Of a stretch of DNA of 64,000 nt, positions 25,472-64,000 are shown one piece after another. Below the pieces are notes generated by a model, which had not been told where the DNA came from, made no database searches, and worked only from the letters and a program-made list of their open reading frames with translations. Source of the DNA: Escherichia coli (GTDB lineage: Bacteria; Pseudomonadota; Gammaproteobacteria; Enterobacterales; Enterobacteriaceae). Both the position numbers and the translations under genes were made by a program. The stretch lies in the NCBI RefSeq assembly GCF_022846255.1, contig NZ_AP025682.1; one strand, given 5' to 3'. Numbering within the stretch: the stretch's first letter is position 1; each line of letters begins with the position of its first letter.

Positions 25472-28099
25472 ATGAGCGACCTTGCGAGAGAAATTACACC
25501 GGTCAACATTGAGGAAGAGCTGAAGAGCTCCTATCTGGATTATGCGATGTCGGTCATTGTTGGCCGTGCGCTGCCAGATGTCCGAGATGGCCTGAAGCCG
25601 GTACACCGTCGCGTACTTTACGCCATGAACGTACTAGGCAATGACTGGAACAAAGCCTATAAAAAATCTGCCCGTGTCGTTGGTGACGTAATCGGTAAAT
25701 ACCATCCCCATGGTGACTCGGCGGTTTATGACACGATCGTCCGTATGGCGCAGCCATTCTCGCTGCGTTACATGCTGGTAGACGGTCAGGGTAACTTCGG
25801 TTCCATCGACGGCGACTCTGCGGCGGCAATGCGTTATACGGAAATCCGTCTGGCGAAAATTGCCCATGAACTGATGGCTGATCTCGAAAAAGAGACGGTC
25901 GATTTCGTTGATAACTATGACGGCACGGAAAAAATTCCGGACGTCATGCCAACCAAAATTCCTAACCTGCTGGTGAACGGTTCTTCCGGTATCGCCGTAG
26001 GTATGGCAACCAACATCCCGCCGCACAACCTGACGGAAGTCATCAACGGTTGTCTGGCGTATATCGATGATGAAGACATCAGCATTGAAGGGCTGATGGA
26101 ACACATCCCGGGGCCGGACTTCCCGACGGCGGCAATCATTAACGGTCGTCGCGGTATTGAAGAAGCTTACCGTACCGGTCGCGGCAAGGTATATATCCGC
26201 GCCCGTGCTGAAGTGGAAGTTGACGCCAAAACCGGACGTGAAACCATTATCGTCCACGAAATTCCTTATCAGGTGAACAAAGCGCGCCTGATCGAGAAGA
26301 TTGCGGAACTGGTAAAAGAAAAACGCGTGGAAGGCATCAGCGCGCTGCGTGACGAGTCTGACAAAGACGGTATGCGCATCGTGATTGAAGTGAAACGCGA
26401 TGCGGTCGGTGAAGTTGTGCTCAACAACCTCTACTCCCAGACCCAGTTGCAGGTTTCTTTCGGTATCAACATGGTGGCATTGCACCATGGTCAGCCGAAG
26501 ATCATGAACCTGAAAGACATCATCGCGGCGTTTGTTCGTCACCGCCGCGAAGTGGTGACTCGTCGTACTATTTTCGAACTGCGTAAAGCTCGCGATCGTG
26601 CTCATATCCTTGAAGCATTAGCCGTGGCACTGGCGAACATCGACCCGATCATCGAACTGATCCGTCATGCGCCGACGCCTGCAGAAGCGAAAACCGCGCT
26701 GGTTGCTAATCCGTGGCAGCTGGGCAACGTTGCCGCGATGCTGGAACGTGCGGGCGACGATGCTGCGCGTCCGGAATGGCTGGAGCCAGAGTTCGGCGTG
26801 CGTGATGGTCTGTACTACCTGACCGAACAGCAAGCTCAGGCGATTCTGGATCTGCGTTTGCAGAAACTGACCGGCCTTGAGCACGAAAAACTGCTCGACG
26901 AATACAAAGAGCTGCTGGATCAGATCGCGGAACTGTTGCGTATTCTTGGTAGCGCCGATCGTCTGATGGAAGTGATCCGCGAAGAGCTGGAGCTGGTTCG
27001 TGAACAGTTCGGTGACAAACGTCGTACTGAAATCACCGCCAACAGCGCAGACATCAACCTGGAAGATCTGATCACCCAGGAAGATGTGGTCGTGACGCTC
27101 TCTCACCAGGGCTACGTGAAGTATCAGCCGCTTTCTGAATACGAAGCGCAGCGTCGTGGCGGGAAAGGTAAATCTGCCGCACGTATTAAAGAAGAAGACT
27201 TTATCGACCGACTGCTGGTGGCGAATACCCACGACCATATTCTGTGCTTCTCCAGCCGTGGTCGCGTCTATTCGATGAAGGTCTACCAGTTGCCAGAAGC
27301 TACTCGTGGCGCGCGTGGTCGTCCGATCGTCAACCTGCTGCCGCTGGAACAGGACGAACGTATCACCGCGATCCTGCCGGTGACCGAGTTTGAAGAAGGC
27401 GTGAAAGTCTTCATGGCGACCGCTAACGGTACGGTGAAGAAAACCGTCCTCACCGAGTTCAACCGTCTGCGTACCGCCGGTAAAGTGGCGATCAAACTGG
27501 TTGAAGGCGATGAGCTGATCGGCGTTGACCTGACCAGCGGCGAAGACGAAGTAATGCTGTTCTCCGCTGAAGGTAAAGTGGTGCGCTTTAAAGAGTCTTC
27601 TGTCCGTGCGATGGGCTGCAACACCACCGGTGTTCGTGGTATTCGTTTAGGCGAAGGCGATAAAGTCGTCTCTCTGATCGTGCCTCGTGGCGATGGCGCA
27701 ATCCTCACCGCAACGCAGAACGGTTATGGTAAACGTACCGCAGTGGCGGAATACCCAACCAAGTCGCGTGCGACGAAAGGGGTTATCTCCATCAAGGTTA
27801 CCGAACGTAACGGTTTAGTGGTTGGCGCGGTGCAGGTAGATGACTGCGACCAGATCATGATGATCACCGATGCCGGTACGCTGGTACGTACTCGCGTTTC
27901 GGAAATCAGCATCGTAGGCCGTAACACCCAGGGCGTAATCCTTATCCGTACTTCGGAAGATGAAAACGTGGTGGGTCTGCAACGTGTTGCTGAACCGGTT
28001 GACGAGGAAGATCTGGATACCATCGACGGCAGTGCCGCGGAAGGGGACGATGAAATCGCTCCGGAAGTGGACGTTGACGACGAGCCAGAAGAAGAATAA
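25472..28099 (+). CDS. gyrA: DNA gyrase subunit A, 875 aa
   Basis: Unmistakable GyrA sequence; QRDR wild-type (Ser83 TCG at 25718-25720, Asp87 GAC at 25730-25732). Confidence 0.97.
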
Positions 28100-46453: not shown

Positions 46454-49303
46454 TTGAAATACCTTGCTTCTTTTCGTACAACCCTGAAAGCCTCGCGCTA
46501 CATGTTCAGAGCATTGGCGTTAGTGCTCTGGCTGTTGATTGCTTTTTCATCCGTTTTTTACATCGTTAATGCGTTACATCAGCGAGAATCGGAAATTCGT
46601 CAGGAATTTAATCTGAGTTCCGATCAGGCTCAGCGCTTTATTCAACGCACCTCTGATGTGATGAAAGAGCTGAAGTACATAGCTGAAAATCGCTTATCGG
46701 CAGAAAACGGTGTGCTTTCCCCGCGTGGACGAGAAACGCAGACGGATGTGCCTGCGTTTGAACCGCTGTTTGCTGACTCTGATTGTTCCGCAATGAGTAA
46801 CACCTGGCGAGGTTCTCTGGAGTCATTGGCGTGGTTTATGCGCTACTGGCGCGATAATTTTTCTGCGGCTTACGATCTAAACCGGGTATTTTTAATCGGC
46901 AGCGATAACCTCTGCATGGCTAATTTCGGTCTGCGTGATATGCCAGTGGAACGCGATACCGCGTTAAAAGCTTTGCATGAACGCATTAATAAATATCGAA
47001 ATGCACCACAAGATGATAGTGGCAGTAACCTCTACTGGATCAGCGAAGGTCCGCGCCCTGGCGTCGGGTATTTTTACGCCTTGACGCCAGTTTATCTGGC
47101 GAACCGGTTGCAGGCGCTTTTGGGTGTCGAGCAAACCATCCGGATGGAGAACTTTTTCTTACCTGGTACGTTGCCGATGGGGGTTACCATTCTTGATGAA
47201 AATGGTCATACCCTGATTTCGCTTACCGGACCAGAAAGCAAAATTAAGGGCGATCCTCGCTGGATGCAGGAACGCTCCTGGTTTGGCTATACGGAAGGGT
47301 TCCGGGAGCTGGTGCTGAAGAAAAATCTGCCACCCTCATCGCTAAGCATCGTGTATTCGGTGCCGGTTGATAAGGTGCTGGAACGCATTCGCATGTTGAT
47401 CCTTAACGCAATTTTGCTGAATGTGCTTGCCGGAGCTGCATTGTTTACTCTCGCGCGGATGTACGAGCGGCGTATTTTCATTCCGGCGGAAAGCGACGCC
47501 TTGCGACTGGAAGAACATGAGCAGTTTAATCGCAAGATTGTCGCCTCCGCGCCAGTGGGTATCTGCATTTTGCGTACCGCTGATGGCGTCAATATTTTAA
47601 GTAACGAACTGGCGCATACCTATCTCAATATGCTTACGCATGAGGATCGCCAACGGCTGACACAAATTATCTGTGGGCAGCAGGTCAATTTTGTTGATGT
47701 CCTGACCAGCAACAATACCAATCTGCAAATCAGCTTCGTCCATTCGCGCTATCGTAATGAAAACGTGGCCATTTGTGTGCTTGTGGATGTTTCTTCGCGC
47801 GTGAAGATGGAAGAGTCGTTGCAGGAGATGGCACAAGCAGCGGAACAGGCGAGTCAGTCAAAATCGATGTTCCTTGCCACCGTCAGTCATGAGCTGCGAA
47901 CGCCGCTGTATGGCATTATCGGTAACCTGGATCTGTTGCAAACCAAAGAGTTACCGAAAGGCGTCGATCGTCTGGTGACGGCAATGAACAACTCTTCCAG
48001 CCTGTTGTTGAAAATTATCAGCGATATTCTCGATTTCTCGAAGATTGAATCGGAACAGTTGAAGATCGAACCGCGTGAGTTTTCACCGCGTGAAGTGATG
48101 AACCACATCACCGCCAACTATTTACCGCTGGTGGTACGCAAGCAGTTAGGCTTGTACTGCTTTATTGAACCGGATGTGCCAGTGGCCTTAAATGGCGACC
48201 CGATGCGTTTACAGCAGGTCATCTCCAACCTGTTGAGTAACGCCATAAAATTCACCGATACCGGCTGTATAGTTTTGCATGTTCGCGCTGATGGCGATTA
48301 TCTCTCTATCCGTGTTCGCGATACCGGCGTGGGGATTCCGGCGAAAGAAGTCGTGCGCTTGTTTGATCCCTTCTTCCAGGTCGGAACGGGCGTACAGCGA
48401 AACTTCCAGGGGACCGGTCTGGGTCTGGCGATTTGTGAAAAACTGATCAGCATGATGGACGGCGATATCTCGGTAGATTCAGAACCGGGAATGGGCAGCC
48501 AGTTTACCGTGCGTATTCCGTTGTACGGCGCTCAGTACCCGCAGAAAAAAGGCGTGGAAGGGTTGAGTGGTAAACGCTGCTGGCTGGCGGTCCGCAATGC
48601 GTCGCTCTGTCAGTTCCTGGAAACCAGTTTGCAGCGCAGCGGCATCGTCGTTACAACATACGAAGGGCAGGAACCGACTCCCGAAGATGTGTTAATCACT
48701 GACGAGGTAGTGAGCAAAAAATGGCAGGGTAGAGCGGTAGTGACCTTCTGTCGTCGCCATATTGGTATTCCGCTGGAGAAAGCGCCAGGGGAGTGGGTAC
48801 ACAGTGTGGCTGCCCCGCATGAGCTACCGGCATTGTTGGCGCGTATTTATTTGATCGAGATGGAGAGCGATGATCCTGCTAACGCTCTGCCGTCGACGGA
48901 CAAAGCGGTCAGCGATAACGACGATATGATGATTCTGGTCGTGGATGATCATCCGATTAACCGGCGTCTTCTGGCAGATCAGTTGGGATCGTTGGGCTAT
49001 CAATGTAAAACCGCGAATGATGGCGTCGATGCGCTTAATGTACTTAGCAAGAATCATATTGATATCGTGCTTAGCGACGTCAACATGCCAAATATGGATG
49101 GTTACCGCTTGACGCAACGCATTCGTCAGTTGGGACTGACGTTGCCGGTTATCGGAGTAACTGCTAATGCGTTGGCTGAAGAGAAGCAGCGGTGTCTGGA
49201 GTCCGGTATGGACAGCTGCCTGTCGAAGCCGGTAACGCTGGATGTGATAAAACAGACGCTAACGGTATATGCCGAGAGGGTCAGGAAATCGCGGGATTCG
49301 TAG
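46454..49303 (+). CDS. rcsC: Hybrid sensor kinase RcsC, 949 aa (TTG start) or 933 aa from ATG 46502
   Basis: HisKA/HATPase plus C-terminal receiver; the ORF-track start is TTG. Confidence 0.9.
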   Translation: MKYLASFRTTLKASRYMFRALALVLWLLIAFSSVFYIVNALHQRESEIRQEFNLSSDQAQRFIQRTSDVMKELKYIAENRLSAENGVLSPRGRETQTDVPAFEPLFADSDCSAMSNTWRGSLESLAWFMRYWRDNFSAAYDLNRVFLIGSDNLCMANFGLRDMPVERDTALKALHERINKYRNAPQDDSGSNLYWISEGPRPGVGYFYALTPVYLANRLQALLGVEQTIRMENFFLPGTLPMGVTILDENGHTLISLTGPESKIKGDPRWMQERSWFGYTEGFRELVLKKNLPPSSLSIVYSVPVDKVLERIRMLILNAILLNVLAGAALFTLARMYERRIFIPAESDALRLEEHEQFNRKIVASAPVGICILRTADGVNILSNELAHTYLNMLTHEDRQRLTQIICGQQVNFVDVLTSNNTNLQISFVHSRYRNENVAICVLVDVSSRVKMEESLQEMAQAAEQASQSKSMFLATVSHELRTPLYGIIGNLDLLQTKELPKGVDRLVTAMNNSSSLLLKIISDILDFSKIESEQLKIEPREFSPREVMNHITANYLPLVVRKQLGLYCFIEPDVPVALNGDPMRLQQVISNLLSNAIKFTDTGCIVLHVRADGDYLSIRVRDTGVGIPAKEVVRLFDPFFQVGTGVQRNFQGTGLGLAICEKLISMMDGDISVDSEPGMGSQFTVRIPLYGAQYPQKKGVEGLSGKRCWLAVRNASLCQFLETSLQRSGIVVTTYEGQEPTPEDVLITDEVVSKKWQGRAVVTFCRRHIGIPLEKAPGEWVHSVAAPHELPALLARIYLIEMESDDPANALPSTDKAVSDNDDMMILVVDDHPINRRLLADQLGSLGYQCKTANDGVDALNVLSKNHIDIVLSDVNMPNMDGYRLTQRIRQLGLTLPVIGVTANALAEEKQRCLESGMDSCLSKPVTLDVIKQTLTVYAERVRKSRDS

Positions 49304-49497
49304 GACGGATAAGGCGTTTACGCCGCATCTGGCATTCAGTGCAAATGCCAGATGCGACGCTGACGTGTCTTATCTGGCCTACTTTAATGTAATCTGTTGA
49401 AATAATGGGAATCGTAGGACGGATAAGGCGTTTACGCCGCATCCGGCAATCGGTGCAAATGCCAGATAAGACACTAACGCGTCTTATCTGGCCTACA
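49304..49497. repeat. REP/BIME cluster between convergent rcsC and rcsB
   Basis: Two copies of cgtaggacggataaggcgtttacgccgcatc (about 49297 and 49412) plus inverted partners ending cttatctggcctac. Confidence 0.8.
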
Positions 49498-50169: not shown

Positions 50170-52842
50170 CTACAGCAAGCTCTTGACATAACTGTCAATG
50201 TCGCTGATGTATTTTTCTATTCCTGGAACATCCTTCTCACGAATCAGATGTTCCAGCGTTTCACATAACTGCTTGCCGGGTACCAGATTTAGCATGGCAA
50301 ATACGCCTTTAAGACGATGAGCCGTTTGGGCTAACGCAGCAAAGTCACTGGTTGCTGCTTCAGTATACAGCCTCTTAACATCATCCGGTACTGTGTCTAC
50401 AAAGAGCGCATAATAGCCGCTGGCATGGAGTTGCGCATTTTCATCTCCGCCCAGAGGCGATTCTGTCACCTCTTCCTGCGCCAGTTGCACTTCAATTAAT
50501 TGTAAGACCGCTTCCTGCATAGCGTTGCTCATATTGAAATTGACGCACAATTGACCAGGCCCAATTTCCCGTACGCCAGACTCATCATCGCTTAAAAGCA
50601 AGCCAGAGGCAGTAAGATTAGACGGATTATCCGTTAAAAAGATATCATAATCTTGACTAATTAATCTTTCATCGGGTGTGATACAGGTTGCACCCCAATT
50701 TTCTAACTGGCGAGTGACAATATTCCGAATTTCTGCCGAAGTAACATCCACCATTACGCAGACATCATCCAGTAATCGCTCTTCTTCCTCTTCAACTTCC
50801 GGGTCAGCTGCGAGCATTTTGATATGCACAGAGTAGCGTGTACCGAGCCCATCCCGCGTTTTGATGTTTAAATGACCGCCCAGTTTACGCGCCAGTTGAT
50901 CGCTCAGCCAGAATGCCAGCGGGTCCGCCTTGCCATAGCGATCGTTTTGGGTCTGGTTGATAAACGGGAAGTGCAAATTATCCATTTCATGAATACTTAC
51001 GCCTTCTCCCGTGTCCAGAATGCGGAACGTCAGGCGGTCTTCGGAGGACTCATCCTGATCAACCTCAAGGGTGATTTTTCCCAATTGCGTTGAGGTCACG
51101 GCATATTGCATCAGTAGTAGCAAAATACGTCGTAAGGCATCGCGATCGCCGCGGCGCATATCGTGTGCTTTCAGATGATTGTTAATCAGCAGTTGCAGAC
51201 CTTTACGCTTGATGGCAGGCAACACTGAAGGCACAACTTCATCAATTAAATCCTGCACGGAGAACAGCTCCGTCTCACTTTTCCAGCTATCGTCCGCAAG
51301 CATGTTCGCTAACTGTATTTCATCGACCAGCCGCACCAGCACATCTGCCTGATTCGCCAGTTGTTTGCCTTCCGGGGCGTTGAGTTTAGCCGCGCTCTCC
51401 GCCAGGGACTGTGCGGGTTCTTTCAGCGCATCGCCAATGTTTTTCATAAAGGTCATCCGCCCCTGCTGGTTTTTCTCATACAGACGCTGCGCCTGCTTGA
51501 GTTTCTTGTTTACCAGCACTTCGCGATCCTGATCGCGAATAATGAAAATTTGTGTGCGCGGCGCAACCTGGCTGCGGAACATGCGGATCTCATACAGCTC
51601 GTTATTGATCGTCGCCTGAATAATCCCCTGATGCTGTTCCGCCATGGTGGTGATGTTTTGCAGATTCAAATGCGGCAGCAAATGATCGGCAATTTTGTTA
51701 CTTATGACTGTGCGGTTCGATTCCTGATCGTGAACCAGCAGGCCGAGCGGCAGCAGTGAGACTATCTCTTCATTAATTGCCCGTAAAATGCGCAATTCGT
51801 TATTGACCGCCGTGCTGGGGACGCTTTCTGTACTGCGGCTGGAGAAATGGCGGAATGTGGTATAGCCAAATAACGCCAGCGCCAGCAAACCGATGTTCAG
51901 CAGCAGTGGCAGCAGAATGTTTTGCAACGTATCCAGCAGTAAGGTGCCGTAAGGAACCTGCCAGACCAGGCGCATATCGGTAGAGTTGAGTGCCGAGGAG
52001 ATTTCAATCTTCGTACTGTTAAAGTGGATACTGACGCTATCCGTCCCTTCTTTCTCATTTTCATTGTTTCCCGTTGCCGTCGCGTCTGGCTCAAGGCGGA
52101 AACTGTCCAGCGGCATACCCGGTGGGATCAAATCATTAATCGGCAGATCAAAAGCCACGACCGTTGCCAGATGTCCCGGCTGGTTGAACGTGGTACGCAA
52201 GGTAAAGTAATGACCGTTCTGCCAGGCCAGGCGGCGCATGTTAGAAAAACTTTCGCGTTCATCGAGGGCGTTGGCCTGTTGCAACATCTCTGCACGACGT
52301 GAATCAACAATGTCGCTGACGGTCGATTCTTTAAATCCGGAGGTGAGATCTTTGAGGGGCAGGGTTGAGATCAGCACCAGACTGTTATCCTGACCATTCA
52401 GGTAATACATCGACCACGGTACATTTTCTGCGCCCCACAATGTGTCCAGATAGGTGGACATCCGTTGAGTCATCTCAAGCGTTGAGTTGTCGTGAGAGCC
52501 AAAGATTAACGCTTCCGTTTTGCGGCGTGGTTTCTCCAGATAGTAGACATCCTGTTTCAGGCGCGTCTCTTGTAAACCTTCGCCGGAGGAGGGGGAGGTT
52601 GTCGCGGCAATGTTGTCGTAGATCTGCCAGGTCACGTAACGCCAGGTATCGACGCGCTTTTGGATAGCGTGGGTAATGTCGACAATCTGGTAACTTTTAT
52701 CTTTCAGCCAGGCGTTAACGGCGCTTTGTACCATTACACCCATCGTCACCAGTAACACAATGATCAACAGTAAAAAGAAGCGGGTAATGCTCCCCGGTAG
52801 GAGTGAAAAGCGGGTCGTGGCCGTTGTCTCTTTCTGACGCAT
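50170..52842 (-). CDS. rcsD: Phosphotransfer intermediate RcsD (YojN), 890 aa
   Basis: Protein recognised; C-terminal HPt domain. Confidence 0.9.
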   Translation of the reverse strand: MRQKETTATTRFSLLPGSITRFFLLLIIVLLVTMGVMVQSAVNAWLKDKSYQIVDITHAIQKRVDTWRYVTWQIYDNIAATTSPSSGEGLQETRLKQDVYYLEKPRRKTEALIFGSHDNSTLEMTQRMSTYLDTLWGAENVPWSMYYLNGQDNSLVLISTLPLKDLTSGFKESTVSDIVDSRRAEMLQQANALDERESFSNMRRLAWQNGHYFTLRTTFNQPGHLATVVAFDLPINDLIPPGMPLDSFRLEPDATATGNNENEKEGTDSVSIHFNSTKIEISSALNSTDMRLVWQVPYGTLLLDTLQNILLPLLLNIGLLALALFGYTTFRHFSSRSTESVPSTAVNNELRILRAINEEIVSLLPLGLLVHDQESNRTVISNKIADHLLPHLNLQNITTMAEQHQGIIQATINNELYEIRMFRSQVAPRTQIFIIRDQDREVLVNKKLKQAQRLYEKNQQGRMTFMKNIGDALKEPAQSLAESAAKLNAPEGKQLANQADVLVRLVDEIQLANMLADDSWKSETELFSVQDLIDEVVPSVLPAIKRKGLQLLINNHLKAHDMRRGDRDALRRILLLLMQYAVTSTQLGKITLEVDQDESSEDRLTFRILDTGEGVSIHEMDNLHFPFINQTQNDRYGKADPLAFWLSDQLARKLGGHLNIKTRDGLGTRYSVHIKMLAADPEVEEEEERLLDDVCVMVDVTSAEIRNIVTRQLENWGATCITPDERLISQDYDIFLTDNPSNLTASGLLLSDDESGVREIGPGQLCVNFNMSNAMQEAVLQLIEVQLAQEEVTESPLGGDENAQLHASGYYALFVDTVPDDVKRLYTEAATSDFAALAQTAHRLKGVFAMLNLVPGKQLCETLEHLIREKDVPGIEKYISDIDSYVKSLL

Positions 52843-53153: not shown

Positions 53154-53246
53154 AAAAAAAACCGGATGCGAGGCATCCGGTTGAAATAGGGGTAAACAGA
53201 CATTCAGAAATGAATGACGGTAATAAATAAAGTTAATGATGATAGC
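53154..53246 (-). ncRNA. micF: MicF antisense sRNA (93 nt), repressor of ompF translation
   Basis: Minus strand reads GCTATCATCATTAACTTTATTTATTACCGTCATTCATTTCTGAATGTCTGTTTACCCCTATTTCAACCGGATGCCTCGCATCCGGTTTTTTTT, ending in a hairpin plus U8 terminator; divergent from ompC. Confidence 0.9.
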
Positions 53247-53401
53247 GGGAGATATTCTAGTTGCGAGTGAAGGTTTTGTTTTGACATTCAGTGCTGTCAA
53301 ATACTTAAGAATAAGTTATTGATTTTAACCTTGAATTATTATTGCTTGATGTTAGGTGCTTATTTCGCCATTCCGCAATAATCTTAAAAAGTTCCCTTAT
53401 A

Positions 53402-53461
53402 TTTACATTTTGAAACATCTATAGCGATAAATGAAACATCTTAAAAGTTTTAGTATCATAT
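53402..53461 (+). promoter_or_regulatory. OmpR-binding sites C1-C2-C3 of the ompC promoter
   Basis: tttacattttgaaacatcta / tagcgataaatgaaacatct / taaaagttttagtatcatat match the known three tandem 20-bp OmpR boxes. Confidence 0.75.
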
Positions 53462-53580
53462 TCGTGTTGGATTATTCTGCATTTTTGGGGAGAATGGACT
53501 TGCCGACTGATTAATGAGGGTTAATCAGTATGCAGTGGCATAAAAAAGCAAATAAAGGCATATAACAGAGGGTTAATAAC

Positions 53581-54696
53581 ATGAAAGTTAAAGTACTGTC
53601 CCTCCTGGTCCCAGCTCTGCTGGTAGCAGGCGCAGCAAACGCTGCTGAAATTTACAACAAAGACGGCAACAAATTAGATCTGTACGGTAAAGTTGACGGC
53701 CTGCACTATTTCTCCGATAACGACTCTAAAGATGGCGACAAGACCTACATGCGTCTTGGCTTCAAAGGTGAAACTCAGGTTACTGATCAACTGACCGGTT
53801 ATGGTCAGTGGGAATATCAGATTCAAGGTAACGAACCTGAAAGTGACAATAGTTCCTGGACCCGTGTGGCATTCGCTGGTCTGAAATTCCAGGACGTTGG
53901 TTCTTTTGACTATGGTCGTAACTACGGCGTTGTTTATGACGTAACATCCTGGACCGACGTGCTGCCAGAATTCGGTGGTGACACCTACAGCTCTGACAAC
54001 TTCATGCAGCAGCGTGGTAACGGCTTCGCGACCTACCGTAACACCGACTTCTTCGGTCTGGTTGATGGCCTGAACTTTGCTGTTCAGTACCAGGGTAAAA
54101 ACGGTAGCCCGTCTGGCGAAGGTATGACTGGTGTGACCAACAATGGTCGTGATGTTCTGGAACAGAACGGTGACGGCGTTGGTGGTTCTATCACTTATGA
54201 CATCGGTGAAGGCTTCAGCTTCGGTGGTGCAATCTCCAGCTCCAAACGTACCGCAGAGCAGAACAATTATGGCATCGGTAACGGCGATCGTGCAGAAACC
54301 TACACTGGTGGTCTGAAATACGACGCTAACAATGTATACCTGGCTGCTCAGTACACCCAGACTTACAACGCAACTCTGGCTGGTGATTTAGGTTGGGCGA
54401 ACAAAGCTCAGAACTTTGAAGTGGTTGCACAGTACCAGTTCGACTTCGGTCTGCGTCCTTCTGTAGCTTACCTGCAGTCCAAAGGTAAAAACCTGAATGC
54501 CAACATCGCTGGTCGTACTTACGACGACGAAGATCTGCTGAAATATGTTGATGTTGGTGCGACCTACTACTTCAACAAAAACATGTCCACCTACGTTGAC
54601 TACAAAATCAACCTGCTGGACGACAACCAGTTCACCCGCGCTGCTGGCATCAACACTGATAACATCGTAGCTCTGGGTCTGGTTTACCAGTTCTAA
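53581..54696 (+). CDS. ompC: Outer membrane porin OmpC, 371 aa (non-K-12 allele)
   Basis: Signal peptide [21 protein letters not shown]; ends LVYQF; differs from my recollection of K-12 OmpC (367 aa) in loop segments. Confidence 0.9.
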
Positions 54697-54716
54697 TCTC
54701 GATTGATATCGAACAA

Positions 54717-54737
54717 AGGGCCTGCGGGCCCTTTTTT
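54717..54737 (+). terminator. Rho-independent terminator of ompC
   Basis: agggcc-tgcg-ggccct hairpin followed by T6. Confidence 0.75.
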
Positions 54738-54807
54738 CATTGTTTTCAGCGTACAAACACAGTTTTTTGGTGTACTCTTGCGACCGTTCGCATGAGGATA
54801 ATCACGT

Positions 54808-55863
54808 ATGGAAATAAGCTTTACCCGCGTGGCACTGCTGGCTGCCGCGCTCTTCTTTGTTGGTTGCGATCAAAAACCACAACCCGCCAAAACCCACGCT
54901 ACTGAAGTTACCGTTCTTGAAGGCAAAACCATGGGTACCTTCTGGCGTGCCAGCATTCCGGGCATTGACGCCAAACGCAGTGCCGAACTTAAAGAAAAGA
55001 TTCAGACCCAGCTGGACGCCGACGATCAGCTGCTTTCGACCTATAAAAAAGATTCCGCGCTGATGCGCTTTAACGACTCGCAAAGTTTGTCGCCGTGGCC
55101 AGTAAGTGAAGCGATGGCCGATATCGTCACCACCTCGCTACGCATTGGCGCGAAGACCGATGGCGCGATGGATATAACCGTCGGGCCGCTGGTGAATCTG
55201 TGGGGCTTTGGCCCGGAACAACAGCCGGTTCAAATTCCGAGCCAGGAACAGATCGATGCGATGAAAGCCAAAACCGGCTTACAGCACCTGACGGTCATTA
55301 ATCAGTCGCATCAGCAATATCTGCAAAAAAACCTGCCGGATTTATATGTCGATCTCTCCACTGTCGGCGAAGGCTATGCGGCGGATCATCTGGCACGCTT
55401 GATGGAGCAGGAAGGGATTTCCCGCTATCTGGTGTCGGTGGGCGGCGCGCTGAACAGCCGTGGCATGAACGGTGAAGGCCAGCCGTGGCGGGTAGCGATT
55501 CAAAAACCAACCGATAAAGAAAACGCGGTTCAGGCTGTGGTGGATATCAACGGTCATGGCATTAGCACCTCTGGCAGCTACCGTAACTATTACGAACTGG
55601 ACGGCAAACGTCTTTCTCATGTTATCGATCCGCAAACCGGGCGTCCTATCGAACACAATCTGGTATCCGTGACGGTGATTGCCCCGACGGCGCTGGAAGC
55701 CGATGCCTGGGATACTGGCTTAATGGTACTGGGGCCGGAGAAAGCCAAAGAGGTTGTTCGCCGGGAAGGACTGGCGGTCTACATGATCACCAAAGAGGGC
55801 GATAATTTTAAAGCCTGGATGTCGCCGCAGTTTAAAAGCTTCCTTATCAGCGAAAAAAATTAA
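54808..55863 (+). CDS. apbE: FAD:protein FMN transferase ApbE (lipoprotein), 351 aa
   Basis: Lipobox LFFVGC near the N-terminus. Confidence 0.85.
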   Translation: MEISFTRVALLAAALFFVGCDQKPQPAKTHATEVTVLEGKTMGTFWRASIPGIDAKRSAELKEKIQTQLDADDQLLSTYKKDSALMRFNDSQSLSPWPVSEAMADIVTTSLRIGAKTDGAMDITVGPLVNLWGFGPEQQPVQIPSQEQIDAMKAKTGLQHLTVINQSHQQYLQKNLPDLYVDLSTVGEGYAADHLARLMEQEGISRYLVSVGGALNSRGMNGEGQPWRVAIQKPTDKENAVQAVVDINGHGISTSGSYRNYYELDGKRLSHVIDPQTGRPIEHNLVSVTVIAPTALEADAWDTGLMVLGPEKAKEVVRREGLAVYMITKEGDNFKAWMSPQFKSFLISEKN

Positions 55864-55869
55864 AGCGCA
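55857..55869 (+). promoter_or_regulatory. Ada box of the ada-alkB promoter
   Basis: AAATTAAAGCGCA matches AAANNAAAGCGCA; overlaps the apbE stop codon. Confidence 0.7.
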
Positions 55870-55936
55870 AGATTGTTGGTTTTTGTGCGATGGTGACCGG
55901 GCAGACTAAAGGCTATCCTTAACCAGGGAGCTGATT

Positions 55937-57001
55937 ATGAAATACGCCACATGCTTAACTGACGATCAACGCTGGCAATCTGTCTTAGCCCGCGACTCGA
56001 ATGCCGACGGCGAATTCGTTTTCGCCGTGCGCACCACGGGTATCTTTTGCCGTCCGTCTTGCCGAGCCAGACATGCCTTGCGGGAAAATGTCTCCTTCTA
56101 CGCAAATGCCAGCGAGGCGCTTGCCGCTGGCTTTCGTCCCTGCAAACGTTGTCAGCCAGACAAAGCCAATCCCCTGCAACATCGCCTTGATAAAATTACC
56201 CACGCCTGCCGACTTCTGGAACAGGAAACGCCTGTAACGCTGGAAGCCTTAGCCGACCAGGTGGCGATGAGTCCATTTCATTTGCATCGGTTGTTTAAAG
56301 CGACTACCGGAATGACGCCTAAAGCCTGGCAACAGGCCTGGCGCGCTCGCCGTTTGCGCGAATTGCTGGCGAAAGGGGAGAGCGTGACTACATCTATTAT
56401 TAACGCCGGATTCCCCGACAGCAGCAGTTACTACCGCAAAGCCGACGAAACGCTGGGCATGACGGCTAAACAATTCCGTCACGGTGGCGAAAATCTGGCG
56501 GTGCGTTACGCGCTGGCTGATTGTGAGCTGGGCCGTTGCCTGGTGGCAGAAAGTGAGCGGGGGATTTGCGCGATATTACTGGGCGATGATGACGCGACAC
56601 TAATCAGCGAGTTACAGCAGATGTTTCCCGCTGCCGACAGCGCGCCTGCCGATCTGACGTTTCAGCAACATGTGCGTGAAGTGATCGCCAGCCTCAATCA
56701 ACGCGATACGCCGCTGACGTTACCGCTGGACATTCGCGGCACTGCTTTTCAGCAACAAGTCTGGCAGGCACTGCGCACGATACCTTGCGGTGAAACCGTC
56801 AGTTATCAGCAACTGGCTAACGCCATCGGCAAACCGAAAGCGGTACGGGCCGTTGCCAGCGCCTGTGCCGCCAACAAGCTGGCTATCATAATACCCTGTC
56901 ATCGGGTGGTCCGTGGTGATGGCACACTTTCCGGTTACCGCTGGGGCGTGTCGCGTAAAGCGCAACTGCTGCGCCGCGAAGCTGAGAATGAGGAGAGGTA
57001 A
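55937..57001 (+). CDS. ada: Bifunctional regulator / O6-methylguanine-DNA methyltransferase Ada, 354 aa
   Basis: N-terminal Zn Cys cluster; C-terminal PCHRV active site. Confidence 0.95.
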   Translation: MKYATCLTDDQRWQSVLARDSNADGEFVFAVRTTGIFCRPSCRARHALRENVSFYANASEALAAGFRPCKRCQPDKANPLQHRLDKITHACRLLEQETPVTLEALADQVAMSPFHLHRLFKATTGMTPKAWQQAWRARRLRELLAKGESVTTSIINAGFPDSSSYYRKADETLGMTAKQFRHGGENLAVRYALADCELGRCLVAESERGICAILLGDDDATLISELQQMFPAADSAPADLTFQQHVREVIASLNQRDTPLTLPLDIRGTAFQQQVWQALRTIPCGETVSYQQLANAIGKPKAVRAVASACAANKLAIIIPCHRVVRGDGTLSGYRWGVSRKAQLLRREAENEER

Positions 57002-57651
57002 TGTTGGATCTGTTTGCCGATGATGAACCGTGGCAAGAGCCACTGGCGGCTGGTGCGGTAATTTTACGGCGTTTTGCTTTTAACGCTGCGGAGCAACTGA
57101 TCCGCGATATTAATGATGTTGCCAGCCAGTCGCCGTTTCGCCAGATGGTCACTCCAGGCGGATATACCATGTCGGTGGCGATGACCAACTGTGGGCATCT
57201 GGGCTGGACGACCCATCGGCAAGGTTATCTCTATTCGCCCATTGATCCGCAAACAAATAAACCGTGGCCCGCCATGCCGCAGAGTTTTCATCATTTATGT
57301 CAACGTGCGGCTACGGCGGCGGGCTATCCAGATTTCCAGCCAGATGCCTGTTTGATCAACCGCTACGCTCCTGGCGCGAAACTGTCGCTGCATCAGGATA
57401 AAGACGAACCGGATCTGCGCGCGCCGATTGTTTCTGTTTCTCTGGGCTTACCCGCGATTTTTCAATTTGGCGGCCTGAAACGAAATGATCCGCTAAAACG
57501 TTTGTTGTTGGAACATGGCGATGTGGTGGTATGGGGCGGTGAATCGCGGCTGTTTTATCATGGCATTCAACCGTTGAAAGCGGGGTTTCATCCACTCACC
57601 GCCGACTGCCGCTACAACCTGACATTCCGTCAGGCAGGTAAAAAAGAATAA
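57001..57651 (+). CDS. alkB: Alkylated-DNA repair dioxygenase AlkB, 216 aa
   Basis: Start overlaps ada stop by 1 nt (TAATG). Confidence 0.95.
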   Translation: MLDLFADDEPWQEPLAAGAVILRRFAFNAAEQLIRDINDVASQSPFRQMVTPGGYTMSVAMTNCGHLGWTTHRQGYLYSPIDPQTNKPWPAMPQSFHHLCQRAATAAGYPDFQPDACLINRYAPGAKLSLHQDKDEPDLRAPIVSVSLGLPAIFQFGGLKRNDPLKRLLLEHGDVVVWGGESRLFYHGIQPLKAGFHPLTADCRYNLTFRQAGKKE

Positions 57652-57726
57652 AAATAAGAATTATTATTGCTGTGCGCACGAAGATGTTTAAACTGCGGGC
57701 TGTAATTCATTGTCCGGGTTTTCTGC

Positions 57727-59370
57727 ATGGAACTTCTTGTACTTGTCTGGCGGCAGTATCGCTGGCCATTTATCAGTGTGATGGCGCTAAGCCTCGCCAG
57801 TGCGGCATTAGGCATTGGCTTAATTGCTTTTATCAATCAGCGCCTTATCGAAACGGCGGATACCAGTCTGCTGGTGTTGCCGGAGTTTCTGGGATTATTG
57901 TTGCTGTTGATGGCAGTCACTCTCGGATCGCAACTGGCGCTCACCACTTTGGGGCATCACTTCGTTTACCAACTGCGTAGTGAATTTATCAAGCGGATTC
58001 TGGATACCCACGTCGAGCGCATTGAACAACTTGGTAGCGCTTCGTTGCTGGCGGGGTTAACCAGCGATGTGCGCAATATCACCATTGCTTTTGTGCGTCT
58101 GCCGGAACTGGTGCAGGGGATCATTCTCACTATCGGTTCCGCGGCGTATTTGTGGATGCTGTCGGGCAAAATGTTGCTGGTAACGGCTATCTGGATGGCA
58201 GTCACCATCTGGGGCGGTTTTGTGCTGGTGGCGCGGGTGTACAAACATATGGCGACCCTGCGTGAAACCGAAGATAAGCTGTACACGGATTTTCAAACCG
58301 TACTCGAAGGGCGCAAAGAGCTGACTCTGAACCGGGAACGCGCCGAGTATGTGTTTAACAACCTCTACATTCCTGATGCGCAAGAGTATCGCCATCATAT
58401 TATCCGCGCAGACACCTTCCATCTTAGTGCCGTGAACTGGTCAAACATCATGATGCTGGGCGCTATCGGCCTGGTGTTCTGGATGGCGAACAGTCTCGGT
58501 TGGGCTGATACCAACGTTGCCGCGACCTATTCGTTGACGCTGTTATTCCTGCGTACGCCGCTGCTTTCGGCAGTTGGCGCATTGCCGACGCTGCTGACGG
58601 CGCAGGTGGCGTTTAACAAGCTGAACAAATTCGCGCTCGCACCTTTCAAAGCAGAGTTTCCACGCCCGCAGGCGTTTCCCAACTGGCAAACGCTGGAGCT
58701 GCGTAACGTGACGTTTGCTTATCAGGATAACGCGTTTTCCGTTGGGCCGATTAACCTCACCATCAAACGTGGCGAACTGCTGTTTCTGATTGGTGGCAAC
58801 GGTAGCGGAAAATCGACGCTGGCGATGTTGCTGACGGGCTTGTATCAGCCACAAAGCGGCGAAATCTTGCTGGATGGCAAACCTGTCAGCGGCGAACAAC
58901 CGGAAGATTATCGCAAACTGTTTTCGGCAGTGTTTACCGATGTCTGGCTGTTTGATCAACTGCTGGGGCCGGAGGGTCAACCCGCTAACCCGCAACTGAT
59001 TGAGAAGTGGCTGGCGCAACTGAAAATGGCTCATAAGCTTGAGTTAAGCAACGGACGTATTGTTAACCTGAAGTTATCAAAAGGGCAGAAAAAACGCGTC
59101 GCGCTGTTGCTGGCGCTGGCAGAAGAACGCGATATTATCCTGCTGGATGAATGGGCGGCGGATCAGGACCCACACTTCCGTCGTGAGTTTTATCAGGTGC
59201 TGCTACCGCTGATGCAGGAGATGGGTAAAACGATTTTCGCCATCAGTCATGATGATCATTACTTTATCCACGCTGACCGCCTGCTGGAAATGCGCAACGG
59301 GCAACTTAGCGAGCTGACAGGCGAAGAGCGCGATGCTGCTTCGCGTGATGCCGTTGCCCGGACGGCATAA
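57727..59370 (+). CDS. yojI: ABC transporter (fused permease/ATPase) YojI, microcin J25 efflux, 547 aa
   Basis: Walker [10 protein letters not shown]; N-terminal transmembrane domain. Confidence 0.85.
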
Positions 59371-59382
59371 TATTTCGACGCT

Positions 59383-59409
59383 GACCTGGCGGACTGCTGC
59401 CGCCAGGTC
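59383..59409 (+). terminator. Stem-loop downstream of yojI (candidate terminator)
   Basis: Perfect 10-bp stem gacctggcgg/ccgccaggtc with 7-nt loop; followed by AT-rich sequence but no clean U-run. Confidence 0.45.
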
Positions 59410-59575
59410 AATATTCTAAAAATCCCTTCATTTCTAATAACCCTATAATTAATCAACGAAATTATAATGTTTCTAAAATTAGAATATAATTTATAAACAT
59501 TATTTAAATGTTGTTACTTAAGTGTTACCGTTGATGCCGCGCAAATCTCACCTGCAATAAAGCGACTAAAAGTAA

Positions 59576-61234
<1,659 letters not shown>

Positions 61235-61236
61235 TG

Positions 61237-61365
61237 ATGTGCCACATCCGGCATGGTATGCCGGATGTGGCGTATGCAGATAAGACGCGTCAGCGTCGCA
61301 TCAGGCAACCGGCTCGGGCGTTAGATGTCGGATGCGGCGTAACCGCCTTATCCGACCTGGCGGTT
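61237..61365. repeat. REP/BIME cluster between mqo and eco
   Basis: gatgtgccacatccggcatggtatgccggatgtggcg ... gatgtcggatgcggcgtaaccgccttatccgacctggcgg. Confidence 0.8.
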
Positions 61366-61383
61366 GCAGCACTTCACAGCAGT

Positions 61384-61872
61384 TTAGCGAACTACCGCGT
61401 TGTCAATTTTCTCTTCCGCCTTCCAGACGCGGTACTTCACATCTACATTGTCTGGCGTATACACCACGATCGGCAGCTTGCTGTTATAACGCAGCATTCC
61501 GGCATCGCCCAGATACGCGGTGACAAATTTCTTCTCTTTCTTGCCATCCGGGCAGGCCATCATCGTCGAAACCGGGGAACTGACTTTATCAAAGACATAA
61601 TAATCATAGCCCCAGCCTTCCAGCGTTTTGCTTTCCAGCTTCCCGCCGAGACGATGCAAATTGCAATCGACTTCCAGCGTCTGGCCGATTAACAGTTCTA
61701 CTTTCAGGGTAGATTCATCTTCTTGCGGGGTTAACTGAATCACCTGGCGCTTCATGCCTTTTTCAGCTTGTGGATAAGGTGCGATTTTTTCCAGTGGCTG
61801 GACGCTTTCTGCCGCCCAGGCGGAAGTGGTGGCGAAAGCGGCAAACAATACTGCAGGTAGAATGGTCTTCAT
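61384..61872 (-). CDS. eco: Ecotin, periplasmic serine protease inhibitor, 162 aa
   Basis: Starts [20 protein letters not shown]; ORF-track start 61893 is an extension. Confidence 0.9.
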
Positions 61873-62131
61873 TTTTTTGCTTTCCTTCTTCATTTATAGG
61901 TTTTCACCGATGATGACGCTGAAGGTTAACATATTCATCAGATTTATTAATTTGCTTTATGAATAACTTAAAGAACATTCAGATAATTTTACCTGCTCTT
62001 TTAGTGTTAAATTCTGATGAGAAAACAAACCAGCAGAAATATCTCTGGCGAATTAATCGATATATAAATATGTTTATAACCATTTGAAATGTGAGCAAAA
62101 GCCCGTTTTTGCCACGCTTCCCGCCACTCTT

Positions 62132-62166
62132 TTGATCCTGCTACAGGTTTTACCCCGATCGGGGTA
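62132..62166 (+). promoter_or_regulatory. napF promoter: FNR-like site (62132-62145) and NarP/NarL 7-2-7 palindrome (62151-62166)
   Basis: ttgatcctgctaca, then perfect palindrome TACCCCGATCGGGGTA 20 bp downstream; spacing fits the known -64.5/-44.5 arrangement; taatat -10 candidate at 62187-62192. Confidence 0.65.
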
Positions 62167-62279
62167 TGCATCTTTGACACATCCTTTAATATCTTAGCGG
62201 CTATAAAAATGGCTTATTAATTATGCGGTTTATTTGGTCGCTCTCAATTTTCAGAGCGCGTTAATGATGGAAGGTCAAT

Positions 62280-62774
62280 GTGAAGATTGATGCATCCCGT
62301 CGGGGCATACTCACTGGTCGCTGGCGCAAAGCCAGTAACGGTATCCGTCCGCCCTGGTCCGGTGATGAATCTCATTTTCTGACCCATTGCACCCGCTGCG
62401 ACGCCTGTATTAATGCTTGTGAAAACAACATTCTGCAACGCGGCGCGGGTGGCTATCCGAGCGTTAATTTCAAAAATAACGAGTGCAGCTTCTGTTACGC
62501 CTGCGCGCAGGCTTGCCCCGAATCGCTATTTTCTCCGCGCCACACCAGGGCCTGGGATTTGCAGTTCACCATTGGGGACGCGTGCCTGGCGTATCAGTCA
62601 GTTGAATGCCGCCGCTGTCAGGATAGCTGTGAGCCAATGGCAATTATCTTTCGCCCGACGCTCTCCGGGATCTACCAGCCGCAACTTAATAGCCAACTTT
62701 GCAACGGATGTGGAGCATGTGCAGCCAGCTGTCCGGTATCAGCCATAACTGCGGAGTATCTCCATGCACACTAA
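62280..62774 (+). CDS. napF: Ferredoxin-type protein NapF, 164 aa
   Basis: GTG start with SD ggaagg 62269-62274; multiple CxxCxxC clusters. Confidence 0.85.
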   Translation: MKIDASRRGILTGRWRKASNGIRPPWSGDESHFLTHCTRCDACINACENNILQRGAGGYPSVNFKNNECSFCYACAQACPESLFSPRHTRAWDLQFTIGDACLAYQSVECRRCQDSCEPMAIIFRPTLSGIYQPQLNSQLCNGCGACAASCPVSAITAEYLHAH

Positions 62775-63027
62775 CTGGCAAGTTTGCAGCCTGGTCGTGC
62801 AGGCCAAAAGCGAACGAATTTCAGACATCAGCACCCAACTGAACGCCTTTACCGGCTGTGAAGTTGCTGTCAGCGACGCGCCGAGCGGTCAGTTGATTGT
62901 GGTGGTGGAAGCAGAAGACAGCGAAACGCTGATCCAAACCATTGAGTCAGTACGCAACGTAGAGGGCGTGCTGGCGGTGTCGCTGGTTTATCACCAGCAG
63001 GAAGAGCAAGGTGAGGAAACACCATGA
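62764..63027 (+). CDS. napD: NapA chaperone NapD, 87 aa
   Basis: Overlaps napF by 11 bp and napA by 4 bp. Confidence 0.85.
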
Positions 63028-64000
63028 AACTCAGTCGTCGTAGCTTTATGAAAGCTAACGCCGTTGCGGCCGCTGCGGCGGCTGCCGGTCTCAGCGTGCC
63101 GGGCGTTGCCCGCGCCGTTGTTGGTCAGCAGGAAGCCATTAAATGGGATAAAGCGCCGTGCCGTTTCTGCGGTACGGGTTGCGGCGTTCTGGTCGGAACG
63201 CAGCAGGGGCGTGTGGTGGCCTGTCAGGGCGACCCGGACGCACCGGTTAACCGTGGCCTGAACTGCATTAAGGGCTATTTCCTGCCCAAAATCATGTACG
63301 GTAAAGACCGTTTGACGCAGCCGCTGCTGCGTATGAAAAACGGTAAATATGACAAAGAAGGCGAATTTACCCCAATCACCTGGGATCAGGCCTTCGATGT
63401 GATGGAAGAGAAATTCAAAACCGCCCTGAAAGAAAAAGGGCCGGAATCGATCGGTATGTTCGGTTCTGGTCAGTGGACTATCTGGGAAGGTTATGCCGCG
63501 TCCAAGTTGTTCAAAGCGGGCTTCCGTTCGAACAACATCGACCCGAACGCGCGTCACTGTATGGCGTCGGCAGTAGTTGGCTTTATGCGTACCTTTGGTA
63601 TGGATGAGCCGATGGGCTGCTATGACGACATCGAGCAGGCTGACGCGTTTGTGCTGTGGGGCTCCAACATGGCGGAGATGCACCCGATCCTCTGGTCGCG
63701 CATCACTAACCGTCGTCTTTCTAACCAGAACGTCACCGTGGCGGTGCTTTCTACCTACCAGCATCGTAGCTTCGAGCTGGCGGATAACGGCATCATCTTT
63801 ACGCCGCAATCTGACCTGGTGATCCTGAACTATATCGCCAACTATATCATTCAAAACAATGCGATAAATCAGGACTTCTTCAGCAAACACGTTAACCTGC
63901 GCAAAGGGGCGACGGACATCGGCTACGGTTTACGTCCGACCCATCCGCTGGAAAAAGCAGCGAAGAATCCGGGTTCTGACGCCTCCGAACCGATGAGCTT
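63024..64000 (+). CDS. napA: Periplasmic nitrate reductase catalytic subunit NapA, N-terminal part (runs off window)
   Basis: Twin-arginine signal [31 protein letters not shown]; Cys cluster CRFCGTGC; not in ORF track because it has no stop inside the window. Confidence 0.9.

Follow-up and report, generated by a model that had tools for sequence, protein, structure and literature searches.

A mosaic ompC allele in Escherichia coli that very probably arose by intragenic recombination with an allele class common to Escherichia fergusonii and non-coli Escherichia

The ompC gene carried by the 64,000-nucleotide stretch of E. coli DNA analyzed here (contig NZ_AP025682.1; hereafter, the window) is very probably a mosaic of a rare allele class, produced by intragenic recombination, that remains a functional ompC with a changed outward face. 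In the sequence of events that we propose, a common E. coli 5' third, encoding the signal peptide and extracellular loops L1 and L2, would have been joined by intragenic homologous recombination to a tract of about 0.65 kb, encoding late L3 through L7, from an allele class that also occurs in E. fergusonii and in non-coli ("cryptic") Escherichia. Ordinary E. coli sequence makes up the promoter, micF, and the genes downstream.

The open reading frame list places an ATG-initiated frame of 371 codons plus a stop codon at the canonical position in the gene order rcsD-micF-ompC-apbE-ada, with micF divergent from ompC and with apbE, ada, alkB, and yojI downstream. The encoded protein matched the NCBIfam model NF007841 ("porin OmpC") at 745.8 bits (cutoff of 484), while its scores for the OmpF model (473 bits; cutoff of 583) and the PhoE model (462.8 bits; cutoff of 599) were both under the cutoff. 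It also matched Pfam family PF00267 (Porin_1; E = 5e-141) and the solved OmpC structure, PDB 2J1N (E = 1.5e-200). These matches identify the window protein as OmpC rather than as OmpF or PhoE. A Sec signal peptide, identical to that of K-12 at residues 1 to 21, is present, and the protein ends in VYQF, which supplies the C-terminal aromatic beta-signal. The features of the locus are as follows.

50170-52842, minus strand: rcsD, upstream of ompC
53154-53247, minus strand: micF antisense sRNA gene, divergent from ompC (Rfam RF00033, 116.8 bits against a gathering score of 79)
53248-53580, plus strand: ompC promoter and 5' leader, conserved with K-12
53581-54696, plus strand: ompC coding sequence
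53581-53643, plus strand: signal peptide (residues 1 to 21), identical to that of K-12; the mature chains in the PDB begin at query residue 22
54715-54734, plus strand: intrinsic-terminator-like hairpin and T-run, just past the ompC stop codon
57001-57651: alkB, full length in the window

Identity to K-12 is 98 to 99% across the regulatory region, micF, and the flanking genes. Because the intergenic region upstream of ompC, which includes a promoter-like site at 53431 to 53459, is 98.6% identical to that of K-12 (and 99.7 to 100% identical to those of strains E2348/69 and A25), nothing in the sequence suggests altered ompC regulation. The micF gene, with a terminator hairpin at 53182 to 53160, is intact and essentially identical to that of K-12 although it adjoins a hypervariable ompC.

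A sequence-only reading of this locus had proposed that the gene is a non-K-12 allele with altered surface-loop segments. The lengths that it gave, 371 amino acids versus 367 for K-12 OmpC, were borne out by the open reading frame list and by translation of the K-12 MG1655 gene (NC_000913.3, b2215), and residues 45 to 59 read exactly as it had quoted them. A MAFFT alignment to K-12 OmpC showed that the two proteins are not identical: 333 of 373 aligned columns match and 40 differ. To assign the differences to parts of the protein, we took the loop boundaries from the strands of a predicted AlphaFold2 (AF2) model. On this basis, 31 of the 40 differing columns lie in the extracellular loops L1 to L8, in agreement with the altered surface loops of that reading. 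In terms of residues, 30 of 131 in the loops differ from K-12, compared to 9 of 219 in the rest of the mature protein (odds ratio of 6.9; Fisher p = 2e-7). The differing columns are distributed as four in L1, five in L2, one in L3, five in L4, six in L5, three in L6, six in L7, one in L8, and nine in strands, and four of the nine strand changes flank the periplasmic turn T4. The net gain of four amino acids relative to K-12 results from five additional residues in L7 (NANIA) and an additional G209 near turn T4, together with two single-residue deletions, one after T183 in L4 and one after G231 in L5. The loops, all on the plus strand, are as follows.

53716-53745, plus strand: L1 (residues 46 to 55), four substitutions relative to K-12; boundaries from AF2 strands
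53827-53853, plus strand: L2 (residues 83 to 91, GNEPESDNS), five substitutions relative to K-12; boundaries from AF2 strands
53926-54012, plus strand: L3, the constriction loop (residues 116 to 144), with the PEFGG motif and a single change relative to K-12, G137S
54094-54174, plus strand: L4 (residues 172 to 198), type a3 of Beck et al., with F182M and a one-residue deletion relative to K-12
54247-54288, plus strand: L5 (residues 223 to 236), Beck type a8, six differing columns relative to K-12
54367-54402, plus strand: L6 (residues 263 to 274), with R to L, V to A, and S to D relative to K-12
54490-54528, plus strand: L7 (residues 304 to 316), Beck type l, with a 15-nucleotide insertion at 54496 to 54510 relative to K-12
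54613-54663, plus strand: L8 (residues 345 to 361), with D to A at window residue 354 relative to K-12

Compared to K-12 OmpC (P06996; PDB 2J1N), the window allele has the same locus, predicted regulation, signal peptide, 16-strand fold, and constriction residues but differs in these 40 columns, among them F182M in L4, a new L5, and the five-residue L7 insertion, and in a synonymous divergence (dS) of 0.34.

We next considered where along the gene the divergence falls. Divergence from K-12 is limited to approximately positions 53650 to 54642, between flanks that are 98 to 99% identical, and the two parts of the gene have different closest relatives. The two modules are as follows.

53581-53930, plus strand: 5' module encoding L1 and L2, of a type frequent in E. 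coli; the same sequence in E2348/69, E. coli 7/2, and A25 (100% identity)
53976-54600, plus strand: 3' module encoding L4 to L7, rare in E. coli and resembling both non-coli Escherichia and E. fergusonii, with the E. fergusonii type at 103 of 111 informative sites

All 35 informative sites in the 5' module are E. coli-like, and its identity to the window is 100% in E2348/69 and E. coli 7/2, 87% in K-12, and 88% in E. fergusonii. The corresponding values for the L4-to-L7 core (54071 to 54560) are 100% in E2348/69, 79% in E. coli 7/2, 81% in K-12, and 97.8% in an E. fergusonii locus (L012), and the core is 96.5% identical to that of non-coli Escherichia (loci L016 and L019). The DNA immediately outside ompC is only 64 to 76% identical to that of E. 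fergusonii. With E. coli 7/2 and E. fergusonii as the parental types, a maximum chi-square analysis gave a value of 101.5 and a breakpoint at 53928/53937 in the L3 coding region (permutation p <= 0.0005); the breakpoint zone, 53931 to 53975, lies inside L3. All 35 informative sites to the left of the breakpoint match the E. coli type; of the 125 to the right, 111 match the E. fergusonii type; and past the stop codon, 73 of 74 match the E. coli type again. Judged by these informative sites, the E. fergusonii-like tract is about 0.65 kb long and wholly intragenic. Finer patches are visible as well, since E2348/69 differs from the window by 13 substitutions clustered at 53937 to 54069 and A25 differs by a K-12-like 4-nucleotide patch at 54636 to 54642.

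The synonymous divergence points to recombination between old allele classes rather than to recent mutation. The dS of ompC relative to K-12 is 0.344, compared to 0.042 to 0.115 for rcsD, apbE, ada, alkB, and yojI, and because of this excess over its neighbors we take the gene to consist of old classes exchanged by recombination. Between the window and E. fergusonii, the 3' part of ompC has a dS of 0.125, which is below the values for the flanking genes of the same pair (0.34 for yojI, 0.53 for apbE, and 1.77 for rcsD) and therefore favors horizontal exchange over a polymorphism that predates the species. A whole-gene signal of positive selection was also considered and was set aside, as the whole-gene dN/dS relative to K-12 is only 0.16. 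An origin of the window as a whole from Shigella or from non-coli Escherichia was likewise rejected, given flanks that are 98 to 99% identical to E. coli compared to approximately 91% for non-coli Escherichia and 64 to 87% for E. fergusonii.

Other histories of the gene have to be set against intragenic recombination. We give almost no credence to an assembly artifact or a nonfunctional copy, for which we found no supporting point: the reading frame is intact, with its K-12-identical signal peptide and C-terminal YQF; conservation extends to the promoter region, to micF, and to the terminator; the ompC DNA recurs unchanged in at least three public assemblies of independent origin (L004, L005, and L010); and the exact protein is known from 98 contigs. 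A more substantial proposal is that a K-12-like ancestral gene acquired the differences in place, through accumulated point mutations and small indels under positive selection on the loops and without recombination. The clustering of the changes in loops fits such an origin, as do the earlier genome scans, cited in bioRxiv 10.1101/2021.09.21.461324, that list ompC as positively selected. However, in-place mutation does not account for a dS that is 3 to 8 times that of the neighboring genes alongside a dN/dS of 0.16, for the sharp boundaries of the divergence, for two halves that have different nearest relatives and are separated by a significant breakpoint, or for a 3' half that is 97.8% identical to the ompC of another species. 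It is already contradicted by these sequence data, and we regard it as extremely unlikely. The 3' module could instead be an ancient polymorphism, maintained by balancing selection since before the species split, rather than the product of horizontal exchange. Several deeply diverged ompC classes do coexist in E. coli, classes are common to several Escherichia species, and long-term diversifying selection on receptors is plausible. An ancient polymorphism nevertheless predicts a dS at least as high as that of flanking genes, whereas the dS of the module is 0.125 against 0.34 to 1.77 for yojI, apbE, and rcsD, and the module contains 147-bp stretches without any mismatch. We consider this history quite improbable.

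To assess how common the recombinant is, we compared its parts to 5,426 complete RefSeq E. coli genomes. The 5' part (53640 to 53930, encoding L1 and L2) reaches at least 99% identity in 526 of these genomes (~10%), while the L4-to-L7 part (54060 to 54560) does so in only 6 and reaches 95 to 99% in 1. Over the whole gene, only two complete genomes have at least 99% identity, one from a monkey (A25) and one from a pig (CP090611), and the E2348/69 genomes have 98.4%. The recombinant allele is thus rare, at ~0.1% of complete genomes. The sequence-only reading had stressed L1, which does differ from K-12, but L1 is of a common type and the unusual part of the protein is L4 to L7. Only 938 of 5,430 matching complete-genome records are at least 99% identical to K-12 ompC, and ~83% fall below that level, so a non-K-12 ompC is the norm in E. 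coli and an allele of this kind is unremarkable. Approximately 98 contigs encode exactly the window protein, which is deposited as "porin OmpC [Escherichia coli]" (e.g., BDH32771.1; UniRef A0A376PU45). In a degenerate-codon scan of 100,044 species representatives, the L7 peptide was present in only two, E. whittamii and SCPM-O-B-8794, the latter labeled E. coli but ~91% identical to the window and apparently a non-coli Escherichia.

The surroundings of the gene vary among strains that share it. Eight public loci that carry the identical protein have flanks 98.6 to 99.3% identical to the window, and none is a full match. Among strains with this protein, one locus (L004) has an alkB shortened to 158 amino acids; another (L010) has no called alkB and carries a gene for a DDE transposase between ada and yojI. 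Positions 54700 to 64000 had no match of at least 99% among the 5,426 complete genomes, with a best match of 98.6%. For positions 28001 to 53000, the best full-length match was 97.8%; other close genomes were at 98.3 to 98.6%, with ~6% of the query uncovered in most.

The allele class is already known, as it has been cataloged and public databases contain the exact protein. In a survey of 2,707 E. coli OmpC proteins, Beck et al. (2016; PMC5056734) distinguished over 220 sequences, which vary mainly in L4, L5, and L7, in many combinations. Their S2 Table includes L4 type a3, L5 type a8, and L7 type l, each with WP_000865540.1 from DEC1A as its type sequence, and the window protein contains all three of these strings. 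WP_000865540.1 is the OmpC of enteropathogenic E. coli (EPEC) O127:H6 E2348/69 and DEC1A, which shares 369 of 371 residues with the window protein, including identical L1, L2, and L4 to L7, and in E2348/69 the 5' module and the L4-to-L7 module are 100% identical to the window in DNA. E2348/69 differs in having D rather than S at L3 residue 137 and D rather than N at L8 residue 361, in the 13-substitution patch described above, and in a flanking background that is ~1% different. Mosaic evolution of the ompC hypervariable regions in L1, L2, L4, L5, and L7 has also been described (bioRxiv 10.1101/2021.09.21.461324). The window allele agrees with the mosaic-porin model of these two papers in its conserved barrel, its modular loop sets, and their recombinant combination. 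Both papers use E. fergusonii only as an outgroup, whereas here, for this allele only, a module is found to be common to E. fergusonii, E. whittamii, and another non-coli Escherichia. What our analysis adds to the catalog is that L4 to L7 are the unusual part, that the allele is a rare recombinant, and that its back two-thirds are common to E. fergusonii and non-coli Escherichia. It offers an example of porin diversity in which existing loop modules are recombined, apparently across Escherichia species, rather than new mutations accumulated, and in which the pore is left untouched.

Comparison with the other Escherichia species bears on the source of the 3' module. The OmpC proteins of E. fergusonii (P0004, P0008, and P0016) are 97% identical to the window protein, with L3 to L7 essentially identical; they differ in L1 (SDDKSVDGDK) and L2 (NAPESENNS), in a 5' module that is 88% identical, and in flanking DNA that is 64 to 76% identical. 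Entries from both E. coli and E. fergusonii occur together in protein clusters at 90% identity, and L7 varies within E. fergusonii, in which one protein (P0006) has a K-12-like L7. With mixed clusters and a polymorphic E. fergusonii, the exchange between the two species could have run in either direction. We offer only tentatively, at somewhat less than even chances, the reading that a non-coli Escherichia (E. fergusonii or a cryptic clade) donated the L3-to-L7 tract to E. coli by intragenic homologous recombination and that the tract persists at ~0.1% as a receptor escape from OmpC-binding phages and contact-dependent inhibition (CDI) systems adapted to E. coli. If true, this would be a cross-species borrowing of a receptor-escape module.

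Assemblies labeled E. coli (loci L016 to L019; e.g., CP057162.1 and the GTDB species representative SCPM-O-B-8794) are ~91% identical to the window over 11 to 16 kb and appear to be non-coli (cryptic-clade) Escherichia with a related ompC class (P0003). Separately, a second E. fergusonii-like tract lies at approximately 55457 to 56956, covering the 3' end of apbE and ada, with 0 to 7 mismatches per 150 bp relative to the same E. fergusonii locus used above (L012). The dS of ada relative to that locus is 0.098, and the 5' half of apbE and rcsD are only 70 to 80% identical to it, which suggests a further interspecies exchange within Escherichia beside ompC.

We next asked what the changes may mean for the structure and the pore. 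The AF2 model, which was computed from a 72-sequence alignment drawn from a 50%-identity representative cluster library, has a mean confidence (pLDDT) of 90.9 and a pTM of 0.86, although residues 179 to 187 in L4 have a pLDDT of <50. It contains 16 strands, with the N-terminal segment 22 to 27 forming an extra short strand, and an inward-folded L3 with PEFGG at residues 129 to 133; a Foldseek comparison to 2J1N gave a target-normalized TM score of 0.97 and a root mean square deviation of 1.5 Å. The OmpC constriction residues, which we take to be mature K16, R37, R74, R124, D105, and E109, correspond to precursor K37, R58, R95, R145, D126, and E130, and these residues and PEFGG are invariant across the aligned OmpC proteins. 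Because the constriction residues and PEFGG are invariant, a normal pore is expected, and with barrel and constriction residues conserved, the protein should work as a normal osmoporin. A trimeric, OmpR-regulated diffusion pore would be expected, for which the 98.6% identity of the upstream region to K-12 gives indirect support. This bears on the proposal that the main consequence of the allele is a change in pore permeability and antibiotic uptake, comparable to the clinical OmpC20-to-OmpC33 series, and not in surface recognition. Clinical OmpC variants do affect drug transport (PDB 2XE1 to 2XE5 and 2XG6), and the window protein has one change in the constriction loop, G137S, at which E2348/69 has D. 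However, neither the basic ladder nor the acidic residues of L3 vary, and all but one of the 31 loop changes are located in other loops. We judge an effect mainly on permeability to be very unlikely.

A changed outward face would matter for the ligands that read it. Since L1, L2, and L4 to L7 differ from those of K-12, such ligands would meet a different receptor; they would include T4 gp37, the gp38 adhesins of T-even phages, the J fibers of lambda-like phages, CdiA of the EC536 class, and antibodies. We infer that the selective cause would be escape from phages, CDI, or antibodies. The sequence-only reading had suggested that the allele may alter phage susceptibility or serum resistance, on the grounds that OmpC loops are phage and colicin receptors and antigenic determinants, and in general terms this functional suggestion seems to be supported by the OmpC loop literature. 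The colicin part of that rationale is weak, as OmpC is not known as a classical receptor for colicins; phages and CDI systems are its better-supported ligands.

For CDI, L4 and L5 of OmpC together decide target recognition by CdiA-EC536, and the receptor-competent L4/L5 types are those of EC536, UTI89, F11, and A33H (PMC5056734). The L4/L5 combination of the window, a3/a8, is absent from both the competent and the resistant sets tested by Beck et al. For T4, the review PMC9603124, citing Suga 2021, names P177 and F182 in L4 of K-12 OmpC as key for the long tail fiber and states that either P177V or F182A blocks infection by wild-type T4. The window protein keeps P177 but has Met at residue 182, and the next Ser is deleted, so the K-12-type receptor pair is not present; the change in the window is F182M, whereas the published substitution is F182A. 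T4 is also unable to use O157 OmpC, which is 94% similar to that of K-12 (PMC5221442). Phage PP01 gp38 contacts L5 and L7 of O157 OmpC and requires the GVIN insertion in L7 (PMC12892980), and in both of these loops the window differs from the K-12 and the O157 versions. Altered recognition by T4, other T-even phages, or CDI systems is plausible given F182M in L4 and the new L5 and L7. We put the chance that OmpC-dependent T4 adsorption is reduced or lost at slightly better than even, and PP01-type adhesins probably do not recognize the window allele. In a smooth strain, O-antigen may mask OmpC, whatever the allele (PMC5221442). As engagement of a strain by T-even and lambda-like phages, by CDI toxins, and by antibodies depends on the OmpC loops, the practical use of the allele lies in the prediction of phage host range and in phage therapy; current understanding is unchanged by it.

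Elsewhere in the window, the spacer between rcsC and rcsB contains two REP/BIME-like palindromic elements, at 49293 to 49382 and 49407 to 49496. Tandem Repeats Finder detected no tandem repeat in this spacer, and the two copies are dispersed REP-like elements. K-12 and E2348/69 each have a single REP/BIME-like copy there, which results in a 114-bp indel between the strains.
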